DNA of 64,000 nucleotides from Escherichia coli (GTDB lineage: Bacteria; Pseudomonadota; Gammaproteobacteria; Enterobacterales; Enterobacteriaceae), in assembly GCF_030384885.1 (NCBI RefSeq), contig NZ_CP128613.1. One strand, written 5' to 3'. The notes under the pieces are model-generated. The model was not told the origin of the DNA. It ran no database searches and saw only the letters and a program-made list of their open reading frames with translations. This document shows positions 6,788 through 30,974 of the stretch, one piece after another. The stretch's first letter is position 1. Every line of letters begins with the position of its first letter. A program made the translations under genes and the position numbers.

Positions 6788-8443
6788 TTAAAACGTTTCC
6801 CAGTTCTCTCCGCTATCTGCCACGGCCATTTTACGCGGCGCAGCTGGCGTCACGGTTTTTACCACAGCCGATGTTTCACGCTGCTGTTGCTGAATCCGGA
6901 ACACTGCCACAGCTTCGGTCAGGCGACTGGCCTGCTCTTCCAGCGCGGCGGCGGCAGCGGCAGATTCTTCCACCAGCGCAGCGTTCTGTTGAGTTACCCG
7001 GTCCATCTCAGCAACCGCTAAGCCAACCTGATCGATACCACGGCTCTGCTCATCAGAAGCCGAAGCAATTTCGCCCATAATGTCCGTCACGCGGGTCACA
7101 GCGCTGACAATCTCTGCCATGGTTTCCCCGGCGCTTTCGACCAGCGTAGAGCCAACATCCACTTTGCCCACCGAGTCTTCAATCAGGCTTTTAATTTCGC
7201 GAGCCGCCTGAGCGCTACGCTGGGCCAGATTACGCACTTCTCCCGCAACCACCGCAAAACCGCGCCCTTGCTCACCCGCACGCGCTGCTTCAACCGCCGC
7301 GTTCAAAGCCAGAATATTGGTCTGGAAGGCAATGCCGTCAATTACGCTGATAATATCGGCGATTTTCTGCGAGCTGGTGGAGATATCGCGCATGGTCTGC
7401 ACCACGTTATCCACCACTTTGCCGCCACGTTGCGCCGTTTCGGAAGCACTTAACGCCAGGTGGCTGGCCTGACGCGCATTTTCGGCGTTCTGCTTCACCG
7501 TTGCGGTCAGTTGCTCCATGCTGGCTGCCGTCTCTTCCAGCGAAGCGGCCTGTTGCTCGGTGCGCGAAGAAAGATCGTTATTGCCGGTGGCGATTTCGCT
7601 GGCACCGCTATAGATAGCATTGGCCCCGTTGCGCACATCACCGACGGTACGCATCAGCTCTCCCTGCATATGGCGCAAACTCTCTGCCAGTTGCCCCATC
7701 TCATTAGAACCATCCACCTCAATCGGTTTCACCAGATCGCCACCTGCAATATGACGAATGCTGTCAATCAGGCGATTCATTGGCGCTACCAACGAGGCTT
7801 TAATACCGAACCAGACGGCGAAGATGACTGCCAGTACGACGATCATCACGCCCACCAGAATCCACATCGCCTGGCTGTAGGAGGCATTGTTATCGCTGAC
7901 AGCGATATCATAGAGCCGATCGTTTTGCTCCATGTAAGCCACATACTGCTTCTCGAAACCGTCCTGATATCCCTGAGTCGGCTGATCAAAGAATTCGTTG
8001 ATTTTGCCTGCACCTAACAGTTGGATCAGTTCCGCCAGCGCATTGTGATAAATATCGTAATTACGTTTGATCTCTGCCGCTGCGGCGGTGCTCTGACGCG
8101 GGTCACGCGGCAATGCTTCGTAATCCGCCCAGTTTTTTTCCGCCTGTTTCAGCGAAATACTGGCACTCTGCATCAGCTCGGCAACGGTTGAACCGCTACC
8201 AATATTGTTCTGATCCATCATGTAGCGGATACCTGCGCGGTTGAGGGTGTTACGCGTCTGCAACAACGCGACCCAGCTGCCATTCAGCGTGGATTGCTGT
8301 TGGCGAATGGTTTGTAAAACAGTGAAATTTTCTTTGTCATTCTTTAAGGCATTAAAGAACAGACCGCCTGATGTCAGTTGTAAAAGGCCAAAAACGGCCA
8401 AAACCAGCAGTAAGCTGGTCACGATCTTGATACGTTTTAACAT
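6788..8443 (-). CDS. tsr: Serine chemoreceptor Tsr (methyl-accepting chemotaxis protein I)
   Basis: 551 aa from ATG ([12 protein letters not shown]...); HAMP and MCP signalling domains; C-terminal NWETF pentapeptide; the ORF track extends 5 codons further to a GTG. Confidence 0.95.
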
Positions 8444-8582: not shown

Positions 8583-9488
8583 ATGGTACAAAGTATCAAT
8601 CTTCTTCGAACCAGTGATACTCCTATGGCTTATAGCATCGATATCATCTCCTGCATTACCGAACGATTTATGGCGTTAACAGCCACTGAAAAGCGTATCG
8701 CACAATTTATTCTTGATGATGTCCCCGCCGCGGTGGAACTGCCAATTGCTGAGCTGGCACGGTTAACGCAAACCAGTCAGGCGTCGGTGACGCGTTTTGC
8801 CCGTGCTCTGGGGTGTAAAGATGTCCGCGAGCTGAAAGTCAAACTGGCGCAGTCACTGGCTATCGGGCAGCGGTTTATTCTCGATGTACCGGATCTTGAC
8901 GGTGTTCAGGGGATCTACGAAGCGATTATTAGCGTGCTGGAAACGCATCGTCGTTCGCTGGATATGAATGCCATCAGCCAGGCGGTAAGCTGGTTAAGTC
9001 AGGCGCGGCAAATTCTTGCATTGGGAACTGGCGGCGGTTCCACCATCTGTTCACAGGAGATTCAGTACCGTTTATTCCGTCTGGGGCTACCTGTGGTTAG
9101 TCAGAATGATGCCCTGATGATGAGAATGATGTGCTCGGCAGTGATGCCGCAGGATGTGGTGATTGTGCTGTCGCTGGGCGGTTATACACCGGAAATCATC
9201 GAAAGTGCGGCAATCGCCCGTCAGTATGGCGCGCGTGTTATTGCCATTACGCCAGCACAAACACCGCTGGCGGAACAGGTGGATCTGGTATTGCCGTTAC
9301 TGGTTCAGGAAAGTGATTACATCTTTAAGCCCACCCCTTCCCGCTACGCGGTGTTAGCCATGGTCGATGTACTGGCAACAGAACTGGCAATGGCAAATAA
9401 AGCGCAGGCGAAAGATCGCCTGCGGCGGATAAAACTGGTGTTAGACAGCCACCGTGGGGGCGCTAACCGCCAGCCACTTGGCGATTAG
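8583..9488 (+). CDS. RpiR/MurR-family transcriptional regulator (HTH_6 plus SIS sugar-phosphate-binding domain)
   Basis: 301-aa ORF; N-terminal region typical of RpiR-type HTH (TATEKRIAQFILDD...) and C-terminal SIS-like region; start uncertain (ATG at 8583 or 8625); not part of the K-12 tsr-btsT junction as I recall it. Confidence 0.75.
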   Translation: MVQSINLLRTSDTPMAYSIDIISCITERFMALTATEKRIAQFILDDVPAAVELPIAELARLTQTSQASVTRFARALGCKDVRELKVKLAQSLAIGQRFILDVPDLDGVQGIYEAIISVLETHRRSLDMNAISQAVSWLSQARQILALGTGGGSTICSQEIQYRLFRLGLPVVSQNDALMMRMMCSAVMPQDVVIVLSLGGYTPEIIESAAIARQYGARVIAITPAQTPLAEQVDLVLPLLVQESDYIFKPTPSRYAVLAMVDVLATELAMANKAQAKDRLRRIKLVLDSHRGGANRQPLGD

Positions 9489-9497
9489 CATTGTCGG

Positions 9498-10967
9498 TTA
9501 TGCTTCTTCAGGTTTGGTGATCACGACACTCTGGTTTTCACGCTCATTGGTGATAATAGCCAGAGCTTCTTCCCGGCTGACCTGACTTGCTGGCGTTACC
9601 AGCGTCACCACTACGCCAGCGAACAGGCTGCCCAGCACTGACGGAATACACGGGTTACCCCAGTAAGCCAGCCAGTCGGCATTCATCAGCACCACAATGG
9701 ACATCACCATACCGCTCACTAACGCCGCCAGCGCGCCCTGCCAGTTAAAGCGTAGCCAGAAGCGACCGAGAATCGAGCAGATAAACAGCCCGGACATCAG
9801 CATCGAAATCATTTTGGTAATGTAGCTGATGATGTCATTAGAGGTCAGAGCAAAGACCAGCGCCAGGCCAATAACAAAGGTCAACATACAGCGTGAGTAA
9901 GTAATGGCCTTGTCCTCCGGCGGCATTCTGCCGGTAATCATGGTGTAGACGTCGCGCATCATAATCGCCACCGCCGCGATGGCATCGGAGCTGGCGGAAG
10001 ACATGGTGGCTGAAAGCCCGGCAATCAGCACCACCAGCCCAAGAATGGCAGGTAAGAAACTGGTCGCGAACAAGAAGGCGTAGTTGCTGTTTTCCAGATT
10101 TGGGTTCATGGTGAACGCCGCCATGCCGATAATGGCAGGCAGAATCGAGAAGAACAGATACAACACGCCAGTAATAACAAATGAACGCCGTACAGAGGGA
10201 ACGTCTTTTCCCGAGTAAATACGCTGGCGATAAGATGGTGTGGCCAGTACGCCGACACCAATAACCAGCGCCAGCGAAAGCGCAGGCAGCACGCCCATTT
10301 TATCAATCGCAAACAGGCTCATCGCTTTTGGGTCCATCGCCTGTTCAATCGCACTCCAGCCACCAACGTGAACAACGGCAAGAATAGCCATTAATATAAA
10401 GCCAAAGAACAGAATTAGGGCCTGAATAGTATCTGTCCACACTACCGCCGAATAACCGCCGATAATAACGTAAATCGCAAAAGCTAAGGCAATAATTAAT
10501 TTTGCCACCGTAAGATCAATACCTGTTGCCCAGGCAAGATACATACTTCCACCTAATATATGCGCCCCCAGCCAGCCAATAGAGGCAATAAATATCATCA
10601 GGCCGACAATATTTTTAATTAAATGGCTGCCGCCAGTATAATAAGATATTTCTTCACTCATGGTCATAAAACGTAATTTACGTACCGGTGCAAACAGCCA
10701 CGCCACCAGTAATATACCTACGGCCCCACCGACGCCATAAAGCATTCCGGCCCAGCCATTGCTGTAGCCAAAGCCCACTGCGCCCATACTGGAACCCGTG
10801 CCAACCATCGTGGCAACGGTTGACCCCAGCGTCAGAAACAGCGGCAGCGAACGCCCGCCCAGCAGAAAATCTTCTCCGCTTTTCTGATTACGAGAAACAA
10901 ACCAACCAAGCCAAATCATGGCGATGGCATAAATAATAAAGCCGACTAAAAAGATATGACTGTTCAT
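9498..10967 (-). CDS. Sodium:solute symporter (SSS) family transporter
   Basis: 489-aa polytopic membrane protein with SSS-type N-terminal pattern (LLGGRSLPLFLTLGSTVAT...). Confidence 0.8.
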   Translation of the reverse strand: MNSHIFLVGFIIYAIAMIWLGWFVSRNQKSGEDFLLGGRSLPLFLTLGSTVATMVGTGSSMGAVGFGYSNGWAGMLYGVGGAVGILLVAWLFAPVRKLRFMTMSEEISYYTGGSHLIKNIVGLMIFIASIGWLGAHILGGSMYLAWATGIDLTVAKLIIALAFAIYVIIGGYSAVVWTDTIQALILFFGFILMAILAVVHVGGWSAIEQAMDPKAMSLFAIDKMGVLPALSLALVIGVGVLATPSYRQRIYSGKDVPSVRRSFVITGVLYLFFSILPAIIGMAAFTMNPNLENSNYAFLFATSFLPAILGLVVLIAGLSATMSSASSDAIAAVAIMMRDVYTMITGRMPPEDKAITYSRCMLTFVIGLALVFALTSNDIISYITKMISMLMSGLFICSILGRFWLRFNWQGALAALVSGMVMSIVVLMNADWLAYWGNPCIPSVLGSLFAGVVVTLVTPASQVSREEALAIITNERENQSVVITKPEEA

Positions 10968-11069
10968 AATTCACATCCTGCCAGTAGAGAGAGAATAATG
11001 TAAGAGTTCCCGGAGTGCTGAATGTATTCAGCACTCAATTGCGGTCTGTTTTTTTAATTCTTAAATTTA

Positions 11070-11459
11070 TTAGCGGGTCGCGTTATAACAGGTCACATCG
11101 ACTTCGACTTTACAATCGACAACCAGATCAGCCACACAACAAATACGTGCAGGCGGATTCTCGCCAAAAAATTCTCTGAATACTTTATTAAATGACTGGA
11201 AATAGCGGGCGTCGGTCAGGATCACTTTCACGTGAACCACATCCGCCAGGCTATAACCGGTTTCAGTCATGATGTCGACACAGTTTTGGATCGCCAGTCG
11301 TGACTGTTCAACGATTCCGCCTTCTATCACTTCACCGTTTTTCATGGGTGTTTGCCCGGAGACGTACAGCCAGCCGCCCGCCTCAACCGCCCTGGCAAAA
11401 GGCAAATGCTGCCCGCCAGTGCCTGTTCCACCTTCCGTACCGTAACGTTTAATGCTCAT
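11070..11459 (-). CDS. RidA/YjgF-family reactive enamine/imine deaminase
   Basis: About 129 aa from the ATG preceded by AAGGAG; RidA-like fold signature; 10 nt downstream of the deacylase stop. Confidence 0.8.
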   Translation of the reverse strand: MSIKRYGTEGGTGTGGQHLPFARAVEAGGWLYVSGQTPMKNGEVIEGGIVEQSRLAIQNCVDIMTETGYSLADVVHVKVILTDARYFQSFNKVFREFFGENPPARICCVADLVVDCKVEVDVTCYNATR

Positions 11460-11468
11460 ATTCACTCC

Positions 11469-12911
11469 TTAATGTGAGGTCTGCCGGCGCAGGAAGCGTC
11501 CCGCACGGCCTGTAATATGTTTATCGCGACCATAGCTCATAACGCCGTTCACCATCACCGCCTCAATGCCATCTGCCGGGCGTTTGGGATCAGAAAAGCT
11601 GGCAACATCACGAATGGTTTGTGGATCGAACAACACCAGGTCCGCAAAATAGCCAACTTTCACCAGTCCACGCTGGGGCAGGCGAAAACGGCTGGCAGAA
11701 AGCCCGGTCATTTTGTGGATAGCCGTGGTCAGTGGGAATAAGCCTTCATCACGGCAATAGTGGCCCAGCACACGAGGGAAGGCGCCCCATAAACGTGGAT
11801 GCGGCATGGGATCATTGGGCAGGCCGTCAGAGCCAATCATACTGACCGGATAACTCAACACTCGGCGGACGTCGCGCTCGTCCATGTTGTAATAGATAGC
11901 CCCGGCAGGCATTAGCAGCTTCGCGGCCTCCAGCATACTCATCTGCCAGTCGATGGCGATTTGCGCCAGTGTTTTTCCGGCCTGCTGCGGATGTGTTTGT
12001 GACCAGGTGATCACAATATCGAATTCGTCGGTGACTTGTTTGAGATCCAGCGTTGATGAACTGGCTGAGTAAGGGTAGACATCGCAGCCAATTTCCTGGT
12101 GTTGACGCATTTGGTCAAAAAAAGCCAACGTTTCTTTTGTCCGCCCCCAGTTTTTCGCCCCGGCGCATTTATGGTGGGAAACCACGACAGGCACTTTGCC
12201 ATGACGCCCAATACGAAACGCCTCATCCAGGGCATCGAGAATCGGTTCAAATTCAGAACGCAGATGGGTGGTATAAACGCCCTTCTCACCGGCTAATTCT
12301 TCCGCCAGCGCCATGACTTCTTCGGTAGTCGCCTGAAATGCTGTGGCATAGGCCAGCCCGGAACTTAACCCCAGCGCCCCCTGACTCAACGCCAGACGTA
12401 AGTCGGCACGCATAGCGGCAATTTCATCCACCGTCGCCGGGCGAAACAGGTCGTCCATATGGTTATTACGCAGCGCCGTATGACCAATCAGCGTGCCAAC
12501 GTTCAGTGACGGCCTGGCTGCTTCCACTGCCTGGGCATAGCTTTCAACGGTAGGATAAATAAAGTGCTCTGCTTCCCCCAGCAGATTCATCGGGTCAGGA
12601 ACTTCGCCTTTCATTTTCGCCGACGCCGCACTGATCCCGCAGTTACCGACAATCACCGTGGTGATCCCCTGGCTGATCTTTGGCAGATATTCCGGGATGC
12701 GAATAACGTTGATATCGTCATGGGTATGAACGTCGATAAACCCTGGTGCCAGCACCCGCCCTTCCCCGTCAATGACCTGCTGCGCCGTAACGTTAAGCGC
12801 AGGGGCAATATCGACAATCCGATCACCTGTTATTGCCACGTCACCGCGAAATTCAGGGCCGCCGCTACCGTCGATAACGGTCACATTTTTGATTAACCAG
12901 TCAACCTGCAT
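11469..12911 (-). CDS. N-acyl-D-amino-acid deacylase (D-aminoacylase; metal-dependent amidohydrolase)
   Basis: About 480 aa; N-terminus (VDWLIKNVTVIDGSGG...GFIDVHTHDD) typical of D-aminoacylases; start placed at the ATG with a GGAG upstream, while the track extends to a GTG 3 codons further. Confidence 0.8.
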   Translation of the reverse strand: MQVDWLIKNVTVIDGSGGPEFRGDVAITGDRIVDIAPALNVTAQQVIDGEGRVLAPGFIDVHTHDDINVIRIPEYLPKISQGITTVIVGNCGISAASAKMKGEVPDPMNLLGEAEHFIYPTVESYAQAVEAARPSLNVGTLIGHTALRNNHMDDLFRPATVDEIAAMRADLRLALSQGALGLSSGLAYATAFQATTEEVMALAEELAGEKGVYTTHLRSEFEPILDALDEAFRIGRHGKVPVVVSHHKCAGAKNWGRTKETLAFFDQMRQHQEIGCDVYPYSASSSTLDLKQVTDEFDIVITWSQTHPQQAGKTLAQIAIDWQMSMLEAAKLLMPAGAIYYNMDERDVRRVLSYPVSMIGSDGLPNDPMPHPRLWGAFPRVLGHYCRDEGLFPLTTAIHKMTGLSASRFRLPQRGLVKVGYFADLVLFDPQTIRDVASFSDPKRPADGIEAVMVNGVMSYGRDKHITGRAGRFLRRQTSH

Positions 12912-13111
12912 GTTCGTCACTCCATTTCTGCAATGGTGACAAGTTAACCATTTACAAGGACGAAAAACAGTGGAAAACTACGCAAAACCCAGATGATTTT
13001 CTGATACTTTTATTCATAAATCATAAGATAAATAAACTAAATATTTATATTTCATTTAGTTACAAATGATACTCATATCCGATACGGTGAAAAACTTAAA
13101 AGGTGAATGTT

Positions 13112-14332
13112 ATGAAATACCACTCTGAACCTCTGGTTCCCCATAAATCTGCCCTGATGCAAATGCCCGCAAATCTCCTTGCCGAAGATGTCTGTTTACC
13201 TGCCGCGATCATTAAAAAGCAGGCCCTGGAGAACAACATTACGTGGATGCAGCGTTATGCTGACGCGCGCGGCGTTTCACTGGCACCGCACGGTAAAACG
13301 ACCATGACGCCGTGGATTTTTCAGGCGCAGCAGGCCGCAGGTGCCTGGGCAATAGGTGTCGGTAGCGCATGGCAGGCTGGTGCGGCAATGGCGAGCGGTA
13401 TTCAGCGAGTGCTGATGGTTAACCAGTTGGTCGGCAAGGCGAATATGCAGTTGATTGCCCAGTTGCAACGGCATTACCCGACGGTCGATTTTATCTGCTG
13501 TATCGACAGCATTGAGAACGCCCGCGCTTTGTCTGCCTTTTTTGCCAGTCAGCAACAGACACTGAACGTGATGATTGAGTTGGGTGTTCCCGGCGGACGC
13601 TGTGGTTGCCGCTCAACGGATGCCGCACTGGCACTGGCTAAACAGGCGGCCCAATTACCAGGGCTACGTCTGCGCGGGCTTGAGTTATATGAAGGTGTTT
13701 TACACGGTGACGATCCACAACCGCAGGTAGAAGCACTGCTGCGGGATGCCGCACAACTGGCCTGTGATATGGCAAGTCTGGTTGATGGCGAGTTTATTCT
13801 CACCGGAGCAGGCACTGTCTGGTATGACGTGGTGTGCAATATCTGGCTGGCGGCAGAAAAGCCTGATAACTGCCGCATTGTTATTCGCCCTGGCTGCTAC
13901 ATCACTCACGACACCGGGATCTACGACGCGGCACAACAACAGTTGCTTGCCCGCGATCCTGTGGCCTGCGATCTGGCAGGCGATCTCACATCTGCGCTGG
14001 AACTGGTCGCCATGGTGCAATCGGTGCCGGAAGCTGATCGTGCGGTGGTAAATTTTGGTAAGCGTGATTGCGCCTTCGACGCCGGACTGCCGCAACCAGT
14101 CGCCCACTATCGCAACGGCAAATCACTGGCATTTGATCCACAGGCGATTCGCAGTACAGGCATTATGGATCAGCACTGCATGTTGCAACTGTCAGCTAAT
14201 AGCGACGTGCAAGTGGGGGATATTCTGGTGTTTGGCACATCGCATCCGTGCCTGACCTTCGACAAATGGAAAACGTTGTTATTGGCTGATGACGACTACA
14301 ACGTACTGGCGGAATTAGACACTCTCTTCTAA
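13112..14332 (+). CDS. DSD1-family PLP enzyme (alanine-racemase-N-like; D-serine / D-threo-3-hydroxyaspartate dehydratase or D-threonine aldolase type)
   Basis: About 406 aa; PLP-lysine motif APHGKT near the N-terminus; start ATG 13112 preceded by AGGTGA; divergent from the deacylase operon. Confidence 0.7.
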   Translation: MKYHSEPLVPHKSALMQMPANLLAEDVCLPAAIIKKQALENNITWMQRYADARGVSLAPHGKTTMTPWIFQAQQAAGAWAIGVGSAWQAGAAMASGIQRVLMVNQLVGKANMQLIAQLQRHYPTVDFICCIDSIENARALSAFFASQQQTLNVMIELGVPGGRCGCRSTDAALALAKQAAQLPGLRLRGLELYEGVLHGDDPQPQVEALLRDAAQLACDMASLVDGEFILTGAGTVWYDVVCNIWLAAEKPDNCRIVIRPGCYITHDTGIYDAAQQQLLARDPVACDLAGDLTSALELVAMVQSVPEADRAVVNFGKRDCAFDAGLPQPVAHYRNGKSLAFDPQAIRSTGIMDQHCMLQLSANSDVQVGDILVFGTSHPCLTFDKWKTLLLADDDYNVLAELDTLF

Positions 14333-14337
14333 GAATA

Positions 14338-14370
14338 CCCCTTCGGTTAATTATCGAAGGGGCATTTTTA
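14338..14370 (+). terminator. Rho-independent terminator after the DSD1-family gene
   Basis: CCCCTTCG-N9-CGAAGGGG followed by a T-run. Confidence 0.6.
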
Positions 14371-14415: not shown

Positions 14416-14444
14416 ACCGCTTACCGCCATTCCTGACCGCTTAC
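14416..14444. promoter_or_regulatory. Direct repeat ACCGCTTAC-N11-ACCGCTTAC upstream of btsT; candidate BtsR (YehT) response-regulator operator
   Basis: Two identical 9-mers about 160-185 bp upstream of the btsT start; resembles the ACC(G/A)CT(C/T)A direct-repeat site described for YehT at the yjiY promoter. Confidence 0.6.
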
Positions 14445-14599: not shown

Positions 14600-16750
14600 A
14601 TGGATACTAAAAAGATATTCAAGCACATACCCTGGGTGATTCTCGGAATCATCGGTGCATTCTGCCTCGCGGTAGTTGCATTACGTCGGGGGGAGCACGT
14701 CAGTGCCCTGTGGATCGTGGTCGCCTCTGTGTCGGTGTATCTGGTGGCTTATCGCTACTACAGTCTGTACATCGCCCAGAAAGTGATGAAACTCGACCCC
14801 ACGCGCGCGACGCCTGCGGTTATTAACAATGACGGTCTGAACTATGTTCCGACCAACCGTTACGTGTTGTTTGGTCACCACTTCGCCGCTATCGCCGGTG
14901 CGGGTCCGCTGGTTGGTCCGGTTCTCGCCGCGCAGATGGGCTACCTGCCTGGCACTCTGTGGCTGCTGGCGGGGGTAGTGCTGGCCGGTGCGGTACAGGA
15001 CTTTATGGTGCTGTTTATCTCCTCTCGCCGTAACGGTGCATCTCTCGGTGAGATGATCAAAGAAGAGATGGGGCCAGTGCCGGGGACTATCGCGCTGTTT
15101 GGCTGTTTCTTAATCATGATCATCATCCTCGCCGTTCTGGCGCTGATTGTGGTTAAAGCCCTGGCCGAAAGTCCGTGGGGTGTCTTCACCGTTTGCTCAA
15201 CCGTACCAATTGCGCTGTTTATGGGTATCTACATGCGCTTTATCCGTCCGGGACGTGTAGGTGAAGTCTCTGTTATTGGTATCGTGCTGCTGGTTGCCTC
15301 TATCTACTTCGGTGGCGTAATTGCTCACGATCCGTACTGGGGTCCGGCACTGACCTTTAAAGACACCACCATTACCTTCGCGCTGATTGGCTATGCGTTT
15401 GTTTCCGCACTGCTGCCGGTGTGGCTGATCCTCGCACCGCGCGACTATCTGGCAACCTTCCTGAAAATCGGCGTTATCGTCGGCCTGGCGCTGGGTATCG
15501 TGGTGTTGAACCCGGAACTGAAAATGCCTGCGATGACGCAGTACATTGACGGTACTGGCCCGCTGTGGAAAGGCGCTCTGTTCCCGTTCCTGTTCATCAC
15601 CATCGCCTGTGGTGCGGTATCTGGCTTCCACGCGCTGATCTCTTCCGGTACGACGCCGAAACTGCTGGCTAACGAAACCGACGCGCGTTTCATTGGCTAC
15701 GGCGCAATGCTGATGGAGTCCTTCGTGGCGATTATGGCGCTGGTTGCTGCATCCATCATCGAACCGGGTCTTTACTTCGCGATGAATACCCCGCCTGCGG
15801 GCCTTGGCATCACCATGCCTAACCTGCATGAAATGGGTGGCGAGAACGCGCCGATCATCATGGCGCAGCTGAAAGACGTTACCGCACACGCGGCAGCGAC
15901 TGTCAGCTCCTGGGGCTTCGTGATTTCGCCAGAGCAGATCCTGCAAACCGCGAAAGACATTGGTGAGCCTTCTGTCCTGAACCGTGCAGGTGGTGCGCCG
16001 ACGCTGGCGGTAGGTATCGCTCACGTGTTCCACAAAGTGCTGCCGATGGCTGACATGGGCTTCTGGTATCACTTCGGTATTCTGTTCGAAGCCCTGTTCA
16101 TCCTGACCGCGCTGGATGCGGGTACCCGTTCTGGCCGCTTTATGCTGCAAGACCTGCTGGGTAACTTCATCCCGTTCCTGAAAAAAACCGATTCTCTGGT
16201 TGCCGGTATCATCGGTACTGCGGGCTGTGTGGGTCTGTGGGGCTACCTGCTGTATCAGGGCGTGGTCGATCCGCTGGGCGGCGTTAAGAGCCTGTGGCCG
16301 CTGTTCGGTATCTCCAACCAGATGCTGGCAGCCGTAGCGCTGGTACTGGGCACCGTTGTGCTGATTAAGATGAAGCGCACCCAATACATCTGGGTGACTG
16401 TTGTTCCGGCTGTATGGCTGCTTATCTGCACCACCTGGGCGCTGGGCCTGAAACTGTTCAGCACCAACCCGCAGATGGAAGGCTTCTTCTATATGGCAAG
16501 CCAGTACAAAGAGAAGATTGCTAACGGTACTGACCTGACGGCACAGCAGATTGCCAACATGAACCACATCGTTGTGAACAACTACACCAACGCGGGCCTG
16601 AGTATTCTGTTCCTGATTGTGGTGTACAGCATCATCTTCTACGGTTTCAAAACCTGGTTGAAGGTGCGTAACAGCGACAAACGTACTGACAAAGAAACAC
16701 CGTACGTTCCAATCCCGGAAGGCGGCGTGAAGATCTCTTCGCACCACTAA
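14600..16750 (+). CDS. btsT: Pyruvate/H+ symporter BtsT (CstA family)
   Basis: 716 aa from ATG (MDTKKIFKHIPWVILG...); large polytopic CstA-family transporter; recognised as BtsT/YjiY. Confidence 0.92.
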   Translation: MDTKKIFKHIPWVILGIIGAFCLAVVALRRGEHVSALWIVVASVSVYLVAYRYYSLYIAQKVMKLDPTRATPAVINNDGLNYVPTNRYVLFGHHFAAIAGAGPLVGPVLAAQMGYLPGTLWLLAGVVLAGAVQDFMVLFISSRRNGASLGEMIKEEMGPVPGTIALFGCFLIMIIILAVLALIVVKALAESPWGVFTVCSTVPIALFMGIYMRFIRPGRVGEVSVIGIVLLVASIYFGGVIAHDPYWGPALTFKDTTITFALIGYAFVSALLPVWLILAPRDYLATFLKIGVIVGLALGIVVLNPELKMPAMTQYIDGTGPLWKGALFPFLFITIACGAVSGFHALISSGTTPKLLANETDARFIGYGAMLMESFVAIMALVAASIIEPGLYFAMNTPPAGLGITMPNLHEMGGENAPIIMAQLKDVTAHAAATVSSWGFVISPEQILQTAKDIGEPSVLNRAGGAPTLAVGIAHVFHKVLPMADMGFWYHFGILFEALFILTALDAGTRSGRFMLQDLLGNFIPFLKKTDSLVAGIIGTAGCVGLWGYLLYQGVVDPLGGVKSLWPLFGISNQMLAAVALVLGTVVLIKMKRTQYIWVTVVPAVWLLICTTWALGLKLFSTNPQMEGFFYMASQYKEKIANGTDLTAQQIANMNHIVVNNYTNAGLSILFLIVVYSIIFYGFKTWLKVRNSDKRTDKETPYVPIPEGGVKISSHH

Positions 16751-29017: not shown

Positions 29018-29353
29018 TCAGGAGGCGATCACCTCCACCAGCACATCCGTTGCCCAGCTCTCTTCACTGTTGACCACATTCCCTTCCTGACAAGCTTGAT
29101 CCATTTTGACTAACTGGAAAGAAACGTCATCGCGGAAATCAAAGTAATGCCATTGCGATGAAAAGTTGATGCGCCAGTAGCCCATCCCCTGATCGAAGCG
29201 GATCTTCAATACCTGACCATCCTCAAAAGTCACCGTCAGTTTACGATGGTGAGGGATATCGCGCGGCGAGTCGAACACCGTCAGTTCTACCGGCCTGCCC
29301 AGCGCAGCAGCAAACCACTGATCAGCGAAATCCTGAAAATCCGCTATGCTCAT
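29018..29353 (-). CDS. Hypothetical protein (111 aa), translationally coupled to the upstream 277-aa ORF
   Basis: ORF-track frame; its ATG overlaps the stop of the upstream ORF (ATGA); no family recognised by eye; may be a remnant of the yjiT/yjiV-type gene found at this position in K-12. Confidence 0.5.
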
Positions 29354-30183
29354 CCAGTCATGGAAAGGCCGGTTAGCAGTCCATTCAAAAAATGCGTTCC
29401 TGTTTCATCATCTAACGGTATTGGAAACTCGCTTCGCCAGGTAGGGTGAACCTTATCAAGCTGTTGTACTGGTTCTTTGTGATTTATTAGGTTGTGAGTA
29501 AGTACTAAGGAATTGAGGTTATCAGCCATATGACTGATAAGTTCTACAGAGGTATCTTCGCTAAAAACAGTAGGCAGCGCTGATTTTTCTATGACAGCTC
29601 TTGCCAGCGAAAGGGCTGAAAAACCTGACTGCTTTGCTTGCTCATATTGTCCAAGGATCCTGGAGAAAACAGCCAGAAAGCGACTGTCTGATTCTTTGAG
29701 TAGCCGGAAAGGTAAACCACCTTCACTGAATAATGTTCCGAGAAAATTGCGTCGTTCAGATTCATAAAATCGAATTGGGCGCAGCCAGTAATCTTCCATC
29801 CCTTTCGGTACGATAGTACCAAGCTCTGTGGCGGTGAATGAAATCCCTATTTTTTTATATATAGGGTCCCACGTCCATCCGCATTGCCGTTCATAATCCC
29901 TGCGGTACCACTCAGAGCAAAAAAGAACAAAACAGGCAGCAAAGTCCCTATTACATATATTAGATTGTGATTGACCGACTGCACGGAGTAGCTGCGTTAA
30001 TTGGGTATATTCATCATTGGTTGCATGATATTCATAAAGAGGACGGCCATCCGGTTGTCTCAACCCTCTAAGATTCACAAAGTTACTTAGCCAGGAAGTA
30101 CATTTTACCCATGAAATGTATTCTGATTGACCCAAAGCAAGCTCCTTAGAGATAAAAGATACAAAAACAAAACCCCACAACAT
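29350..30183 (-). CDS. Hypothetical protein (277 aa) in the mcrC-yjiS variable slot
   Basis: ORF-track frame; AT-rich relative to flanking core genes; no obvious Shine-Dalgarno; no family recognised by eye. Confidence 0.5.
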
Positions 30184-30633
30184 TTCTAATTTGAAAGAAA
30201 ACCTTTCAGAATATTGTATAGTTACTCAGGCGGCAACAACTATTTTTTCAGGTCGATACTATAAATCAATTTTAGATAAAAATGATATCAACCATCTATT
30301 AATCACAACTCATTTATCACCTGATTTTATAATTTCAAATGAAAATAAATCTCAAACAATCAAAAAGTATTCAGTAGCTGACATTTAACTTTCCAGGATA
30401 TAAAACAATTAGAGAAACTGCACAATAGCGAATAATGAGAGTTGTAAAGTCAGTCAAAAAACACAAGTAATCACTGTGCGTTTTTTGACCGTTATCGACA
30501 TGAGTTTAAAGAGGTTAGTGAAGAAGATATTCCTGTACACTCCATACCTATTGATGAATTGTCTCGGGAAAATTTTTATAACTTAATATAAAAACATAAA
30601 AACGTTTTATTATATATAAATCTATATCCCCCC

Positions 30634-30798
30634 TCACTCCACATCCTCCCTGCGTAACCCGATATCCCTCAACCGCTCATCACTCATCTGCTGTAACACG
30701 CGTCGGGTCTGCATTTGCCGCCGCCAACGCCTCACCGCCTGCCAGAGTTGCACAAGGCCGATAAACGGCGCTTTAGCTCTGTTTTCGTGAAATTCCAT
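30634..30798 (-). CDS. yjiS: YjiS (DUF1127) small protein
   Basis: 54 aa read from the minus strand (MEFHENRAKAPFIGLVQLWQAVRRWRRQMQTRRVLQQMSDERLRDIGLRREDVE); not in the supplied ORF track because it is under 60 aa. Confidence 0.8.
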   Translation of the reverse strand: MEFHENRAKAPFIGLVQLWQAVRRWRRQMQTRRVLQQMSDERLRDIGLRREDVE

Positions 30799-30974
30799 CT
30801 GCTGCCTCCTCATCTTTCAGAGGCTTCATCATCCGCCTTCTGGCAGTTCACAATACAGATGCAAATATTAGTTTTATTTAACATACAGACAGGTTAAAAC
30901 AACATCTGCATCCGGTTTTTTAGCCTCATCTGTACCGGTTTTTCTCTCTGTATGGTCCAAATAAGGAGTACAGC

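Follow-up and report, generated by a model that had tools for sequence, protein, structure and literature searches.

A predicted ong-type cluster for 2-acetamido-2-deoxy-D-hexonates between tsr and btsT of Escherichia coli

The monomer that is freed from chitin oxidised by lytic polysaccharide monooxygenases (LPMO) is N-acetyl-D-glucosaminate (2-acetamido-2-deoxy-D-gluconate, GlcNAc1A), and its catabolism in oxidative chitin utilisation by Pseudoalteromonas prydzensis ACAM 620 is the task of the ong cluster (Jiang et al. 2022, PMC9537276). The subject of this account is a set of five genes lying between tsr and btsT in a 64,000-nucleotide stretch of Escherichia coli DNA ("the window": contig NZ_CP128613.1, 100% identical to the chromosome of strain Z142-3, NZ_CP159694.1), which very probably make up the core of a module of the same type.

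The ong route leads from GlcNAc1A by way of D-glucosaminate to 2-keto-3-deoxygluconate (KDG). OngIT, an importer of the sodium:solute symporter (SSS) superfamily, is assigned the transport of GlcNAc1A over the inner membrane, deletion and complementation strains having been compared for growth on this substrate; OngB deacetylates GlcNAc1A to D-glucosaminate; OngC, a pyridoxal phosphate (PLP) enzyme of fold type III, converts D-glucosaminate to KDG and ammonia, and deaminates D-Ser and D-Thr as well; KdgK phosphorylates KDG; and OngR, a repressor of the RpiR family, is relieved by GlcNAc1A (PMC9537276). The authors of that work call the pathway "akin to D-amino acid catabolism". The steps attributed to enzymes, transport and repression have been shown for Pseudoalteromonas only (PMC9537276).

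That there is an ong cluster in E. coli is not a new recognition, since Supplementary Data 3 of Jiang et al. (2022) already tabulates 14 E. coli strains, E. fergusonii ECD227 and an Escherichia sp. as "ong cluster +", the E. coli entries with ongC, ongR, ongB, ongD and ongIT and without lpmo, kdgK and ongA; the main text is silent on the E. coli cluster. Three things appear to have gone unsaid in the literature searched: 1) the exchange, in enterobacterial relatives, of KdgK/Eda for DgoK/DgoA, with a covarying Asn in the deacetylase; 2) the probable mislabelling of the Klebsiella orthologue of that deacetylase, KleDacyl; 3) the probable history of an ancestral locus and its loss at the tsr-btsT junction. 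A search for E. coli phylogroup work on the ong cluster yielded nothing relevant.

The five genes and the class of their substrate

The proteins encoded between tsr and btsT align over essentially their full lengths with the five core proteins of the P. prydzensis cluster (locus L083), at the identities listed below. An ong cluster is defined by Jiang et al. (2022) as at least four co-located homologues of OngB, OngC, OngD, OngR and OngIT, each with E < 1e-5 and more than 30% identity; in E. coli all five are found within 5.7 kb. The genes, together with the core genes on either side, are:

6788-8443, minus strand: tsr, the core gene on the left flank (RefSeq annotation; NCBIfam NF011615, 1214 bits, above cutoff)
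8625-9488, plus strand: ongR-like gene for a MurR/RpiR (HexR-like) repressor (43% full-length identity to P. prydzensis OngR)
9498-10967, minus strand: ongIT-like gene for a sodium:solute symporter, last gene of the minus-strand operon (57% identity to OngIT over 475 aa; TIGR00813)
11070-11459, minus strand: ongD-like gene for a Rid-family protein (82% identity to OngD; TIGR00004)
11469-12911, minus strand: ongB-like gene for a metal-dependent de-N-acetylase of D-aminoacylase fold, first gene of the operon (54% identity to P. prydzensis OngB, PpOngB)
13112-14332, plus strand: ongC-like gene for a fold-type-III PLP deaminase/dehydratase, DSD1-like (45% identity over 399 aa to P. prydzensis OngC, PpOngC)
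14600-16750, plus strand: btsT, the core gene on the right flank (RefSeq annotation; CstA-family match)

(A technical note: the coordinates of the five genes are those of the RefSeq starts in Z142-3, which, where they differ, are 3-14 codons shorter than the maximal open reading frames of the spacer, 8583-9488 and 13103-14332 on the plus strand and 9498-10967, 11070-11465 and 11469-12920 on the minus strand. All five align end to end with characterised homologues and are free of frameshifts.) An earlier note, made from the letters of this DNA, had listed an RpiR regulator, a symporter, RidA, a deacylase and a DSD1-type PLP enzyme, and open reading frames, profile matches and RefSeq annotation all agree with that inventory. 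The same note took tsr and btsT to be adjacent in K-12, and rightly so: the 6156 bp that separate them in the window compare with only 377 bp in the K-12-like strain 4A.

The OngC homologue has both its PLP-lysine motif, PHGK (K62), and its metal motif, SHPC (H378, C380), in common with PpOngC; its best solved relative is 3GWQ, and a cluster representative that is 98% identical to it carries PF01168 (Ala_racemase_N) and PF14031 (D-ser_dehydrat), as a DSD1-like protein should. Identity with BhcC was considered and ruled out (a score of 106 against an equivalog cutoff of 690). The Rid protein matches TIGR00004 at 79 bits, under the RidA-subfamily cutoff of 106, and is placed in the Rid family at large; its arginine motif, PPARIC (PAR), is identical to that of OngD, and the arginine of this motif is catalytic in RidA. 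The symporter belongs, by its TIGR00813 match, to the SSS superfamily. The regulator matches the HexR, MurR/RpiR and AlsR models over its full length, best of all the HexR subfamily of NCBIfam (198 bits, below cutoff), and its Klebsiella orthologue carries PF01418 and PF01380, the HTH_6 and SIS domains of the MurR/RpiR family.

The deacylase is the most informative of the five with regard to substrate. It is 84% identical to KleDacyl of K. pneumoniae (PDB 9G5M), less so to PpOngB (PDB 9KB1, annotated as a "carbohydrate de-N-acetylated protein"), and its identity to the D-aminoacylases 1M7J and 3GIP is lower. The complex of PpOngB with GlcNAc1A defines the ligand contacts, and mutagenesis has singled out Ser292 and Gln298 as the residues that discriminate between sugar-acid and amino-acid substrates (PMC12017989). 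In a MAFFT alignment 14 of the 15 contact and cavity residues of PpOngB are identical in the E. coli protein (contacts L110, Y188, E220, K248, Y279, S284, S285, S286, Q292, D362, L364 and R373; cavity residues A187 and A250), the exception being G348, which is replaced by N342. Written as a 15-position signature, the same alignment gives LAYEKAYSSSQGDLR for PpOngB, LAYEKAYSSSQNDLR for both E. coli and Klebsiella, and LFYEKMYGSTRMDLR for the D-aminoacylase of A. faecalis (AfDam), which differs from PpOngB at 6 of the contact and cavity positions and at the discriminating ones carries F, M, G, T and M. Where a sugar-acid enzyme is expected to have Ser292, Gln298 and small or polar residues at 193, 256 and 348 (PpOngB numbering), E. 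coli has S286, Q292, A187, A250 and N342. Absent from it is the side-chain pocket of the D-aminoacylases, whether of the F191/M254/T290/L298/M346 type (AfDam) or the R295 type (BbDam); the structural equivalences of these positions were taken from published structures (PMC12017989, PMC12149444). H62, H64, C91, H216, H246 and D362 are invariant across the alignment of the E. coli, Klebsiella and P. prydzensis proteins; the roles of the metal ligands and the catalytic Asp in this subtype-V amidohydrolase site have been described (PMC12017989, PMC12149444).

Thus, the earlier statement that the substrate is not identifiable from sequence proves too pessimistic: homology to OngR, OngIT, OngD, OngB and OngC, combined with the sugar-acid specificity residues of the OngB homologue, yields a substrate class. 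The five tsr-btsT genes very probably form the core of an ong-type module for a 2-acetamido-2-deoxy-D-hexonate, namely GlcNAc1A and/or its C4 epimer. The predicted substrate is formally an N-acetyl-D-alpha-amino acid, but it is a sugar acid and not a D-amino acid of the proteinogenic type. Of the D-amino-acid pathway that the earlier note had proposed, the reaction logic accordingly survives (uptake, deacylation, PLP-dependent beta-elimination and deamination, handling of the enamine/imine by RidA), and the substrate does not.

How might the module work? If, as their sequences suggest, the E. coli proteins act like their Pseudoalteromonas counterparts, the free sugar acid would cross the outer membrane through porins and be taken up by the Na+/solute symporter. 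The OngB homologue, a mononuclear-metal amidohydrolase, would remove the acetyl group, giving a 2-amino-2-deoxy-hexonate and acetate; the OngC homologue, with its PLP and metal, would bring about loss of the C3 hydroxyl and the amino group, with the Rid protein probably speeding the hydrolysis of the enamine/imine to 2-keto-3-deoxy-hexonate and ammonia. Conversion of the latter to pyruvate and glyceraldehyde-3-phosphate would fall to one of two kinase/aldolase pairs encoded elsewhere, kdgK/eda or dgoK/dgoA, all of which are core E. coli genes. Since no LPMO, no OngA of glycoside hydrolase family 20 (GH20) and no TonB receptor are encoded at the E. coli locus, the module would serve a scavenger of monomer that other organisms set free or that arises by oxidation, chemical or enzymatic.

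A number of observations weigh against assigning the cluster to the ong type. Four of the five proteins are only moderately similar to characterised enzymes (43-57% identity), and the biochemical role of OngD, the counterpart of the fifth, is unproven even in P. prydzensis, where this Rid protein is genetically essential for growth on GlcNAc1A (PMC9537276). The cluster is a core only: no homologue of PpKdgK or PpOngA was found by tblastn anywhere in the 64-kb window, and the entire accessory set of the full pathway (KdgK, GH20 OngA, the TonB receptor OngOT and LPMO) is missing from it. The residue equivalent to position 348 of PpOngB is polar, yet it is Asn and not Gly. KleDacyl hydrolyses N-acetyl-D-Met, -Phe and -Trp, which PpOngB does not, so that the enterobacterial pocket cannot be identical to the marine one. 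Finally, the source of the substrate in the habitats of E. coli is conjectural.

A different combination of genes is seen in Pseudomonas (P. vancouverensis, locus L015, 7667-11458, and about 50 other loci), where a GntP-family aldonate permease accompanies an OngR-like regulator and an OngB-like deacetylase (63% identical, with Gly at 348). Within 10 kb of this three-gene module there is no gene for an OngC, Rid or SSS protein, and its downstream steps must therefore be encoded elsewhere or be different. The pairing of OngB and OngR homologues with an aldonate permease is counted here as pointing to a hexonate substrate.

Gluco or galacto configuration

Which of the two epimers is the substrate? 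The clusters of Pseudoalteromonas, Vibrio and Andreprevotia include a PfkB-type KdgK (NF052444), and those of Vibrio also an Eda-type aldolase (NF004325). Orthologues of the E. coli genes, 73-95% identical and in the same order, are found in Klebsiella, Raoultella, Leclercia, Cedecea, Rahnella, Buttiauxella and other genera, and in at least ten enterobacterial genera the orthologous operon contains DgoK (PF05035) and a DgoA-subfamily aldolase, not KdgK and Eda. The kinase, a 2-keto-3-deoxygalactonokinase of the DGOK family (Pfam E = 4e-90), is encoded between the symporter gene and ongR; the in-cluster aldolase, encoded there too, scores 293-302 bits with NF006600, the KDPGal-aldolase subfamily, for which the cutoff is 207; and in Leclercia, Cedecea, Rahnella, Buttiauxella, Klebsiella and Raoultella the kinase and aldolase genes overlap or abut the gene upstream. 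E. coli, Franconibacter and Shimwellia are without an in-cluster kinase and aldolase. Position 348 of OngB covaries with this context, being Asn in the company of DGOK/DgoA and Gly or Cys in the company of KdgK, with the other 14 positions invariant; in a rough neighbour-joining tree the Asn-type sequences are not monophyletic.

These observations lead to the tentative proposal that the enterobacterial form of the module may act on N-acetyl-D-galactosaminate (GalNAc1A), which would be converted to 2-keto-3-deoxy-D-galactonate and consumed by DgoK and DgoA, a pathway that is so far undescribed. Equally tentative is its corollary that Asn342, standing where gluco-type enzymes have Gly/Cys348, could be part of an epimer switch, and with no more assurance one may suppose that DgoK and DgoA, for which Klebsiella, Leclercia and others have genes within the operon itself, would be drawn from the core dgo operon in E. 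coli. It speaks for the galacto configuration that the DGOK kinase and the NF006600 aldolase overlap or abut the symporter gene in the six enterobacterial genera just named, KdgK/Eda taking their place in the marine clusters, and that position 348 changes with kinase type in sequences that do not form a single clade. N-acyl-D-hexosamine oxidase is published to oxidise GalNAc at 98-99% of the rate for GlcNAc, so enzymatic routes to GalNAc1A exist, and GalNAc1A lay outside the substrates of both enzymology papers on the deacetylase (PMC12149444, PMC12017989). Oxidised mucin O-glycans and microbial hexosamine oxidases would be possible sources.

There are corresponding reasons for caution: the evidence is purely comparative; E. 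coli itself has neither gene in the cluster; a single residue difference need not set epimer specificity; and the literature search turned up no catabolism of galactosaminate or GalNAc1A. Paraburkholderia, considered as an independent instance of the link between Asn348 and DgoK, had to be downgraded, as its DGOK and DgoA are encoded in an adjacent operon that has its own IclR regulator and a sugar ABC transporter.

Only slightly less likely is it that the substrate is N-acetyl-D-glucosaminate, as in Pseudoalteromonas, with KDG passing to the core KdgK and Eda, and with E. coli cross-feeding on the monomer of LPMO-oxidised chitin. No substrate of the family other than N-acetyl-D-glucosaminate has been established by experiment, the residues that hydrogen-bond the C3-C6 hydroxyls of GlcNAc1A are all retained (E220, S284, S286, Q292), and Jiang et al. 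classed the E. coli and Klebsiella clusters alike as ong. Set against this are the DgoK/DgoA-type operon of at least ten enterobacterial genera, the Asn at cavity position 348 of the enterobacterial lineage where every KdgK-associated enzyme has Gly or Cys, and the absence of chitin-oxidising machinery from the E. coli locus. The Klebsiella structure adds a further point against the gluco configuration, in that Asn342 touches a bound polyol next to Glu220: the crystal of KleDacyl has glycerol in the side-chain pocket, bound to Glu220, Lys248, Asn342 and Gln292 (PMC12149444).

History and control sequences of the segment

The earlier note spoke of an island inserted between tsr and btsT, a description that comparison with other genera does not favour. 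Relative to the K-12 spacer, the breakpoints lie at about 8503 on the left and about 14432 on the right, high identity resuming at 14433 and a weaker similarity beginning at about 14390. A count over 5426 complete E. coli genomes finds the segment in 193 (3.6%), always on the chromosome; the carriers include SMS-3-5 (phylogroup F), avian-pathogenic E. coli (APEC) O78:H4 and enterotoxigenic E. coli (ETEC) O6:H16. Among 60 evenly spaced carrier genomes 18 are listed as coming from chicken, poultry or wild birds, which may be no more than a matter of lineage (APEC O78:H4 and the like).

The most likely history is that of an ancestral enterobacterial locus which has suffered repeated partial or complete loss in E. 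coli and been kept in a minority; four lines of evidence point to this and to its deletion in K-12. 1) The chromosomal neighbourhood is shared with other genera. In Leclercia ongR abuts tsr-lgoT-lgoR-lgoD, as it does in E. coli; in Klebsiella and Raoultella ongR has opgB (87% identical to opgB of the window) about 1 kb upstream, and ongC is followed by a hydroxyproline-type (hyp) cluster; ETEC O6:H16 M9682-C1 has precisely this Klebsiella-like arrangement, tsr-ong5-hyp9-btsT. 2) Divergence is like that of the flanks. The identities of flanking proteins to their Leclercia and Klebsiella counterparts (Tsr 87%, LgoT 90.5%, OpgB 87%) are bracketed by those of the ong proteins (75-95%), and between E. 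coli strains the genes of the segment are 97.1-99.1% identical, its flanks 97.1-98.6%. 3) Signatures of mobility are lacking: the junctions have no repeat of 8 bp or more, no tRNA and no integrase, insertion sequence or other mobility gene occurs at the segment, and its GC content is typical (0.515, against 0.494 for the window). 4) Deletions are nested, with independent endpoints. E. coli HH45 (locus L090, 5989-8282) retains only a remnant, consisting of a truncated and frameshifted ongB and a frameshifted ongC, and the left endpoint of its deletion differs from that of K-12-like strains.

For these reasons it is unlikely that some E. coli gained the segment by horizontal transfer, as an island inserted at the tsr-btsT junction, although the patchy distribution of the segment would suit such an origin, as would a gap in the protein search, in which identity falls from 98% (E. 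coli) to 84% (Klebsiella) with no intermediates among the matches listed. The hyp cluster, present in 35 of the 5426 genomes, is at least 99.5% identical in all of them, which fits a recent spread of the long form of the segment. Recombinational spread of the segment between E. coli lineages is possible. For the K-12-specific stretch of about 75-150 bp at the centre of the K-12 spacer, no match was detected in the segment, the long ETEC form, Leclercia or Klebsiella. With an ancestral origin preferred, the segment is an ordinary accessory catabolic cluster that most E. coli, K-12 included, have probably lost.

Some details of the surroundings may be recorded here. The hyp cluster occupies 10 kb, with nine genes between ongC and btsT in the Klebsiella/Raoultella arrangement (loci L088, 11792-17714, and L091, 12994-23024, of E. 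coli O6:H16 M9682-C1; also L085 and L086, 11270-21221): they encode an Ldh-family oxidoreductase, an APC permease, an aldehyde dehydrogenase, a DHDPS-family enzyme, an AraC regulator, a 4-hydroxyproline epimerase, two FAD oxidoreductases and a 2Fe-2S protein. In APEC E14033 lgoT has an internal stop (L089, 2770-4131), and in ETEC M9682-C1 btsT is frameshifted (L091, 10468-12617). Farther along the window, on the minus strand at 29018-38665, an intact yjiT (1096 aa) is followed by the gene of a 2114-aa DEAD/DEAH-box helicase, beside the mcrBC-symE-hsdSMR-mrr "immigration control" region; in K-12 yjiT and the adjoining helicase gene are presumably fragmentary.

Three features of the segment bear on its expression:

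8584-8598, strand not assigned: candidate OngR operator, the 15-bp palindrome TGGTAC-AAA-GTATCA, 27 bp upstream of the ongR start codon
12912-13111, strand not assigned: divergent ongB/ongC control region, AT-rich (GC about 0.43), with putative promoter and operator roles
14338-14362, plus strand: hairpin resembling an intrinsic terminator, after ongC at the right edge of the segment (10-bp stem with 6 GC pairs, followed by the T-run CATTTTTATT)

The OngR homologue would keep both divergent promoters, those of ongB and ongC, and probably that of its own gene, repressed as long as neither the substrate nor an intermediate of the pathway is present. The palindrome is the candidate for its operator: the pattern TGGTAC-N3-GTA(C/T)CA, with at most one mismatch, stands directly upstream of ongR in 11 of 11 enterobacterial loci and at that stringency is unique in the 64-kb window. 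A search of the ongB/ongC spacer and of the marine clusters for the ongR-type palindrome gave no match with up to two mismatches. The ongB/ongC spacer has conserved features of its own, four blocks that are kept across 11 enterobacterial genera (12941-12958; 12963-12987; 13002-13016, TGATACTTTTATTCA; 13067-13072). The heptamer TGATACT occurs four times in the two regulatory spacers of the segment (8592-8621 and 13002-13073), as an inverted pair around the ongR start region, flanking the palindrome, and as a direct pair in the ongB/ongC spacer; in the window as a whole nine copies are observed against 4.5 expected. TGATACT may be part of the OngR recognition sequence. (The inverted repeat AACTAAAT-N11-ATTTAGTT, at 13029-13062, was also considered as an operator and dropped, since it is not conserved in other genera.) A scan of the region for promoters and terminators returned counts no higher than in shuffled sequence, and only the hairpin after ongC has been used; Rfam and tRNA scans of the region found nothing.

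Implications and likeness to described systems

If the segment is functional, it would give a minority of E. coli lineages a private source of carbon and nitrogen in the form of C1-oxidised N-acetyl amino sugars, and so provide a further case of strain-level partitioning of nutrient niches. A pathway of marine chitin degraders would thereby extend to gut enterobacteria that are unable to oxidise chitin, which implies cross-feeding or sources of oxidised amino sugars that do not involve LPMO. The association with DgoK and DgoA predicts a galacto-configured variant that is possibly new.

True D-aminoacylases resemble the E. coli enzyme in fold, in metal ligands (HxH, Cys, His, His), in the catalytic Asp and in how they anchor the alpha-carboxylate and the acetamido group; they differ in the side-chain pocket, which is F191/M254/T290/L298/M346, or has R295 in the D-Glu enzyme, where E. 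coli has A187/A250/S286/Q292/N342. KleDacyl accepts only D-forms, among them N-acetyl-D-Met, -Phe, -Trp and -aminobutyrate, with kcat/Km of 1.5-2.8 min-1 mM-1 on N-acyl-D-amino acids (2.8 on N-acetyl-D-Met) and no hexosaminates among the substrates of that study (PMC12149444); the value for PpOngB on GlcNAc1A is 1.6 s-1 mM-1 (PMC12017989), and comparing these published figures places the activity of KleDacyl on N-acyl-D-amino acids about 30-fold lower. A generic salvage pathway for N-acyl-D-amino acids and D-amino acids (D-Ser, D-Thr, D-hydroxyaspartate) is highly improbable, since the D-specificity of the 84% identical KleDacyl, the action of PpOngC on D-Ser and D-Thr and the names that PGAP gives at the locus ("D-aminoacylase", "amino acid deaminase") are outweighed by these weak rates, by a hydrophobic pocket replaced by Ala, Ala, Ser, Gln and Asn, by a regulator that is a SIS protein of the sugar-phosphate/sugar-acid type, and by relatives whose operons include kinases and aldolases for keto-deoxy sugar acids, enzymes for which the catabolism of D-amino acids has no use. 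The "D-acylase" label of the Klebsiella orthologue and the PGAP names thus probably misstate the physiological substrate. The two papers of 2025 on KleDacyl and PpOngB, which are 54% identical to each other and have the same pocket residues, one presenting KleDacyl as a D-acylase (PMC12149444) and the other PpOngB as a GlcNAc1A-specific deacetylase (PMC12017989), neither cite each other nor try each other's substrates.

The seven-gene cluster of Klebsiella, Raoultella and Leclercia, which includes KleDacyl (PDB 9G5M; PMC12149444), is a close relative of the E. coli set: order, orientation and chromosomal neighbourhood are the same, and both have the palindrome in front of ongR as well as the conserved blocks of the divergent promoter region. 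Its two extra operonic genes, for the DGOK-family kinase and the KDPGal-type aldolase, are not in E. coli.

The dga system of Salmonella has proteins that are unrelated to those of ong: uptake is by a phosphotransferase system (PTS), the PLP enzyme belongs to another family, control is by sigma-54, phosphorylation precedes deamination, and there is no deacetylase. What it shares with ong is the conversion of an amino-aldonate to a keto-deoxy sugar-acid phosphate, by means of a D-glucosaminate PTS permease, the ammonia-lyase DgaE and the aldolase DgaF (PWY-7310). D-glucosaminate degradation of the dga type has been reported, in a study of extraintestinal pathogenic E. coli (ExPEC), as a mark of STc95; its locus is a different one, and it is unrelated to ong.

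With the ong cluster of P. prydzensis, finally, the E. coli set shares the same five families and the same overall chemistry. The two differ in gene order (ongCRBD and ongIT-kdgK-ongA in Pseudoalteromonas, ongR / ongB-ongD-ongIT / ongC in E. coli), in OngB cavity residue 348 (Gly in P. prydzensis, Asn in E. coli), and in equipment: the TonB receptor OngOT, KdgK, GH20 OngA and an LPMO are lacking from the E. coli set, which is reduced to the five core genes.

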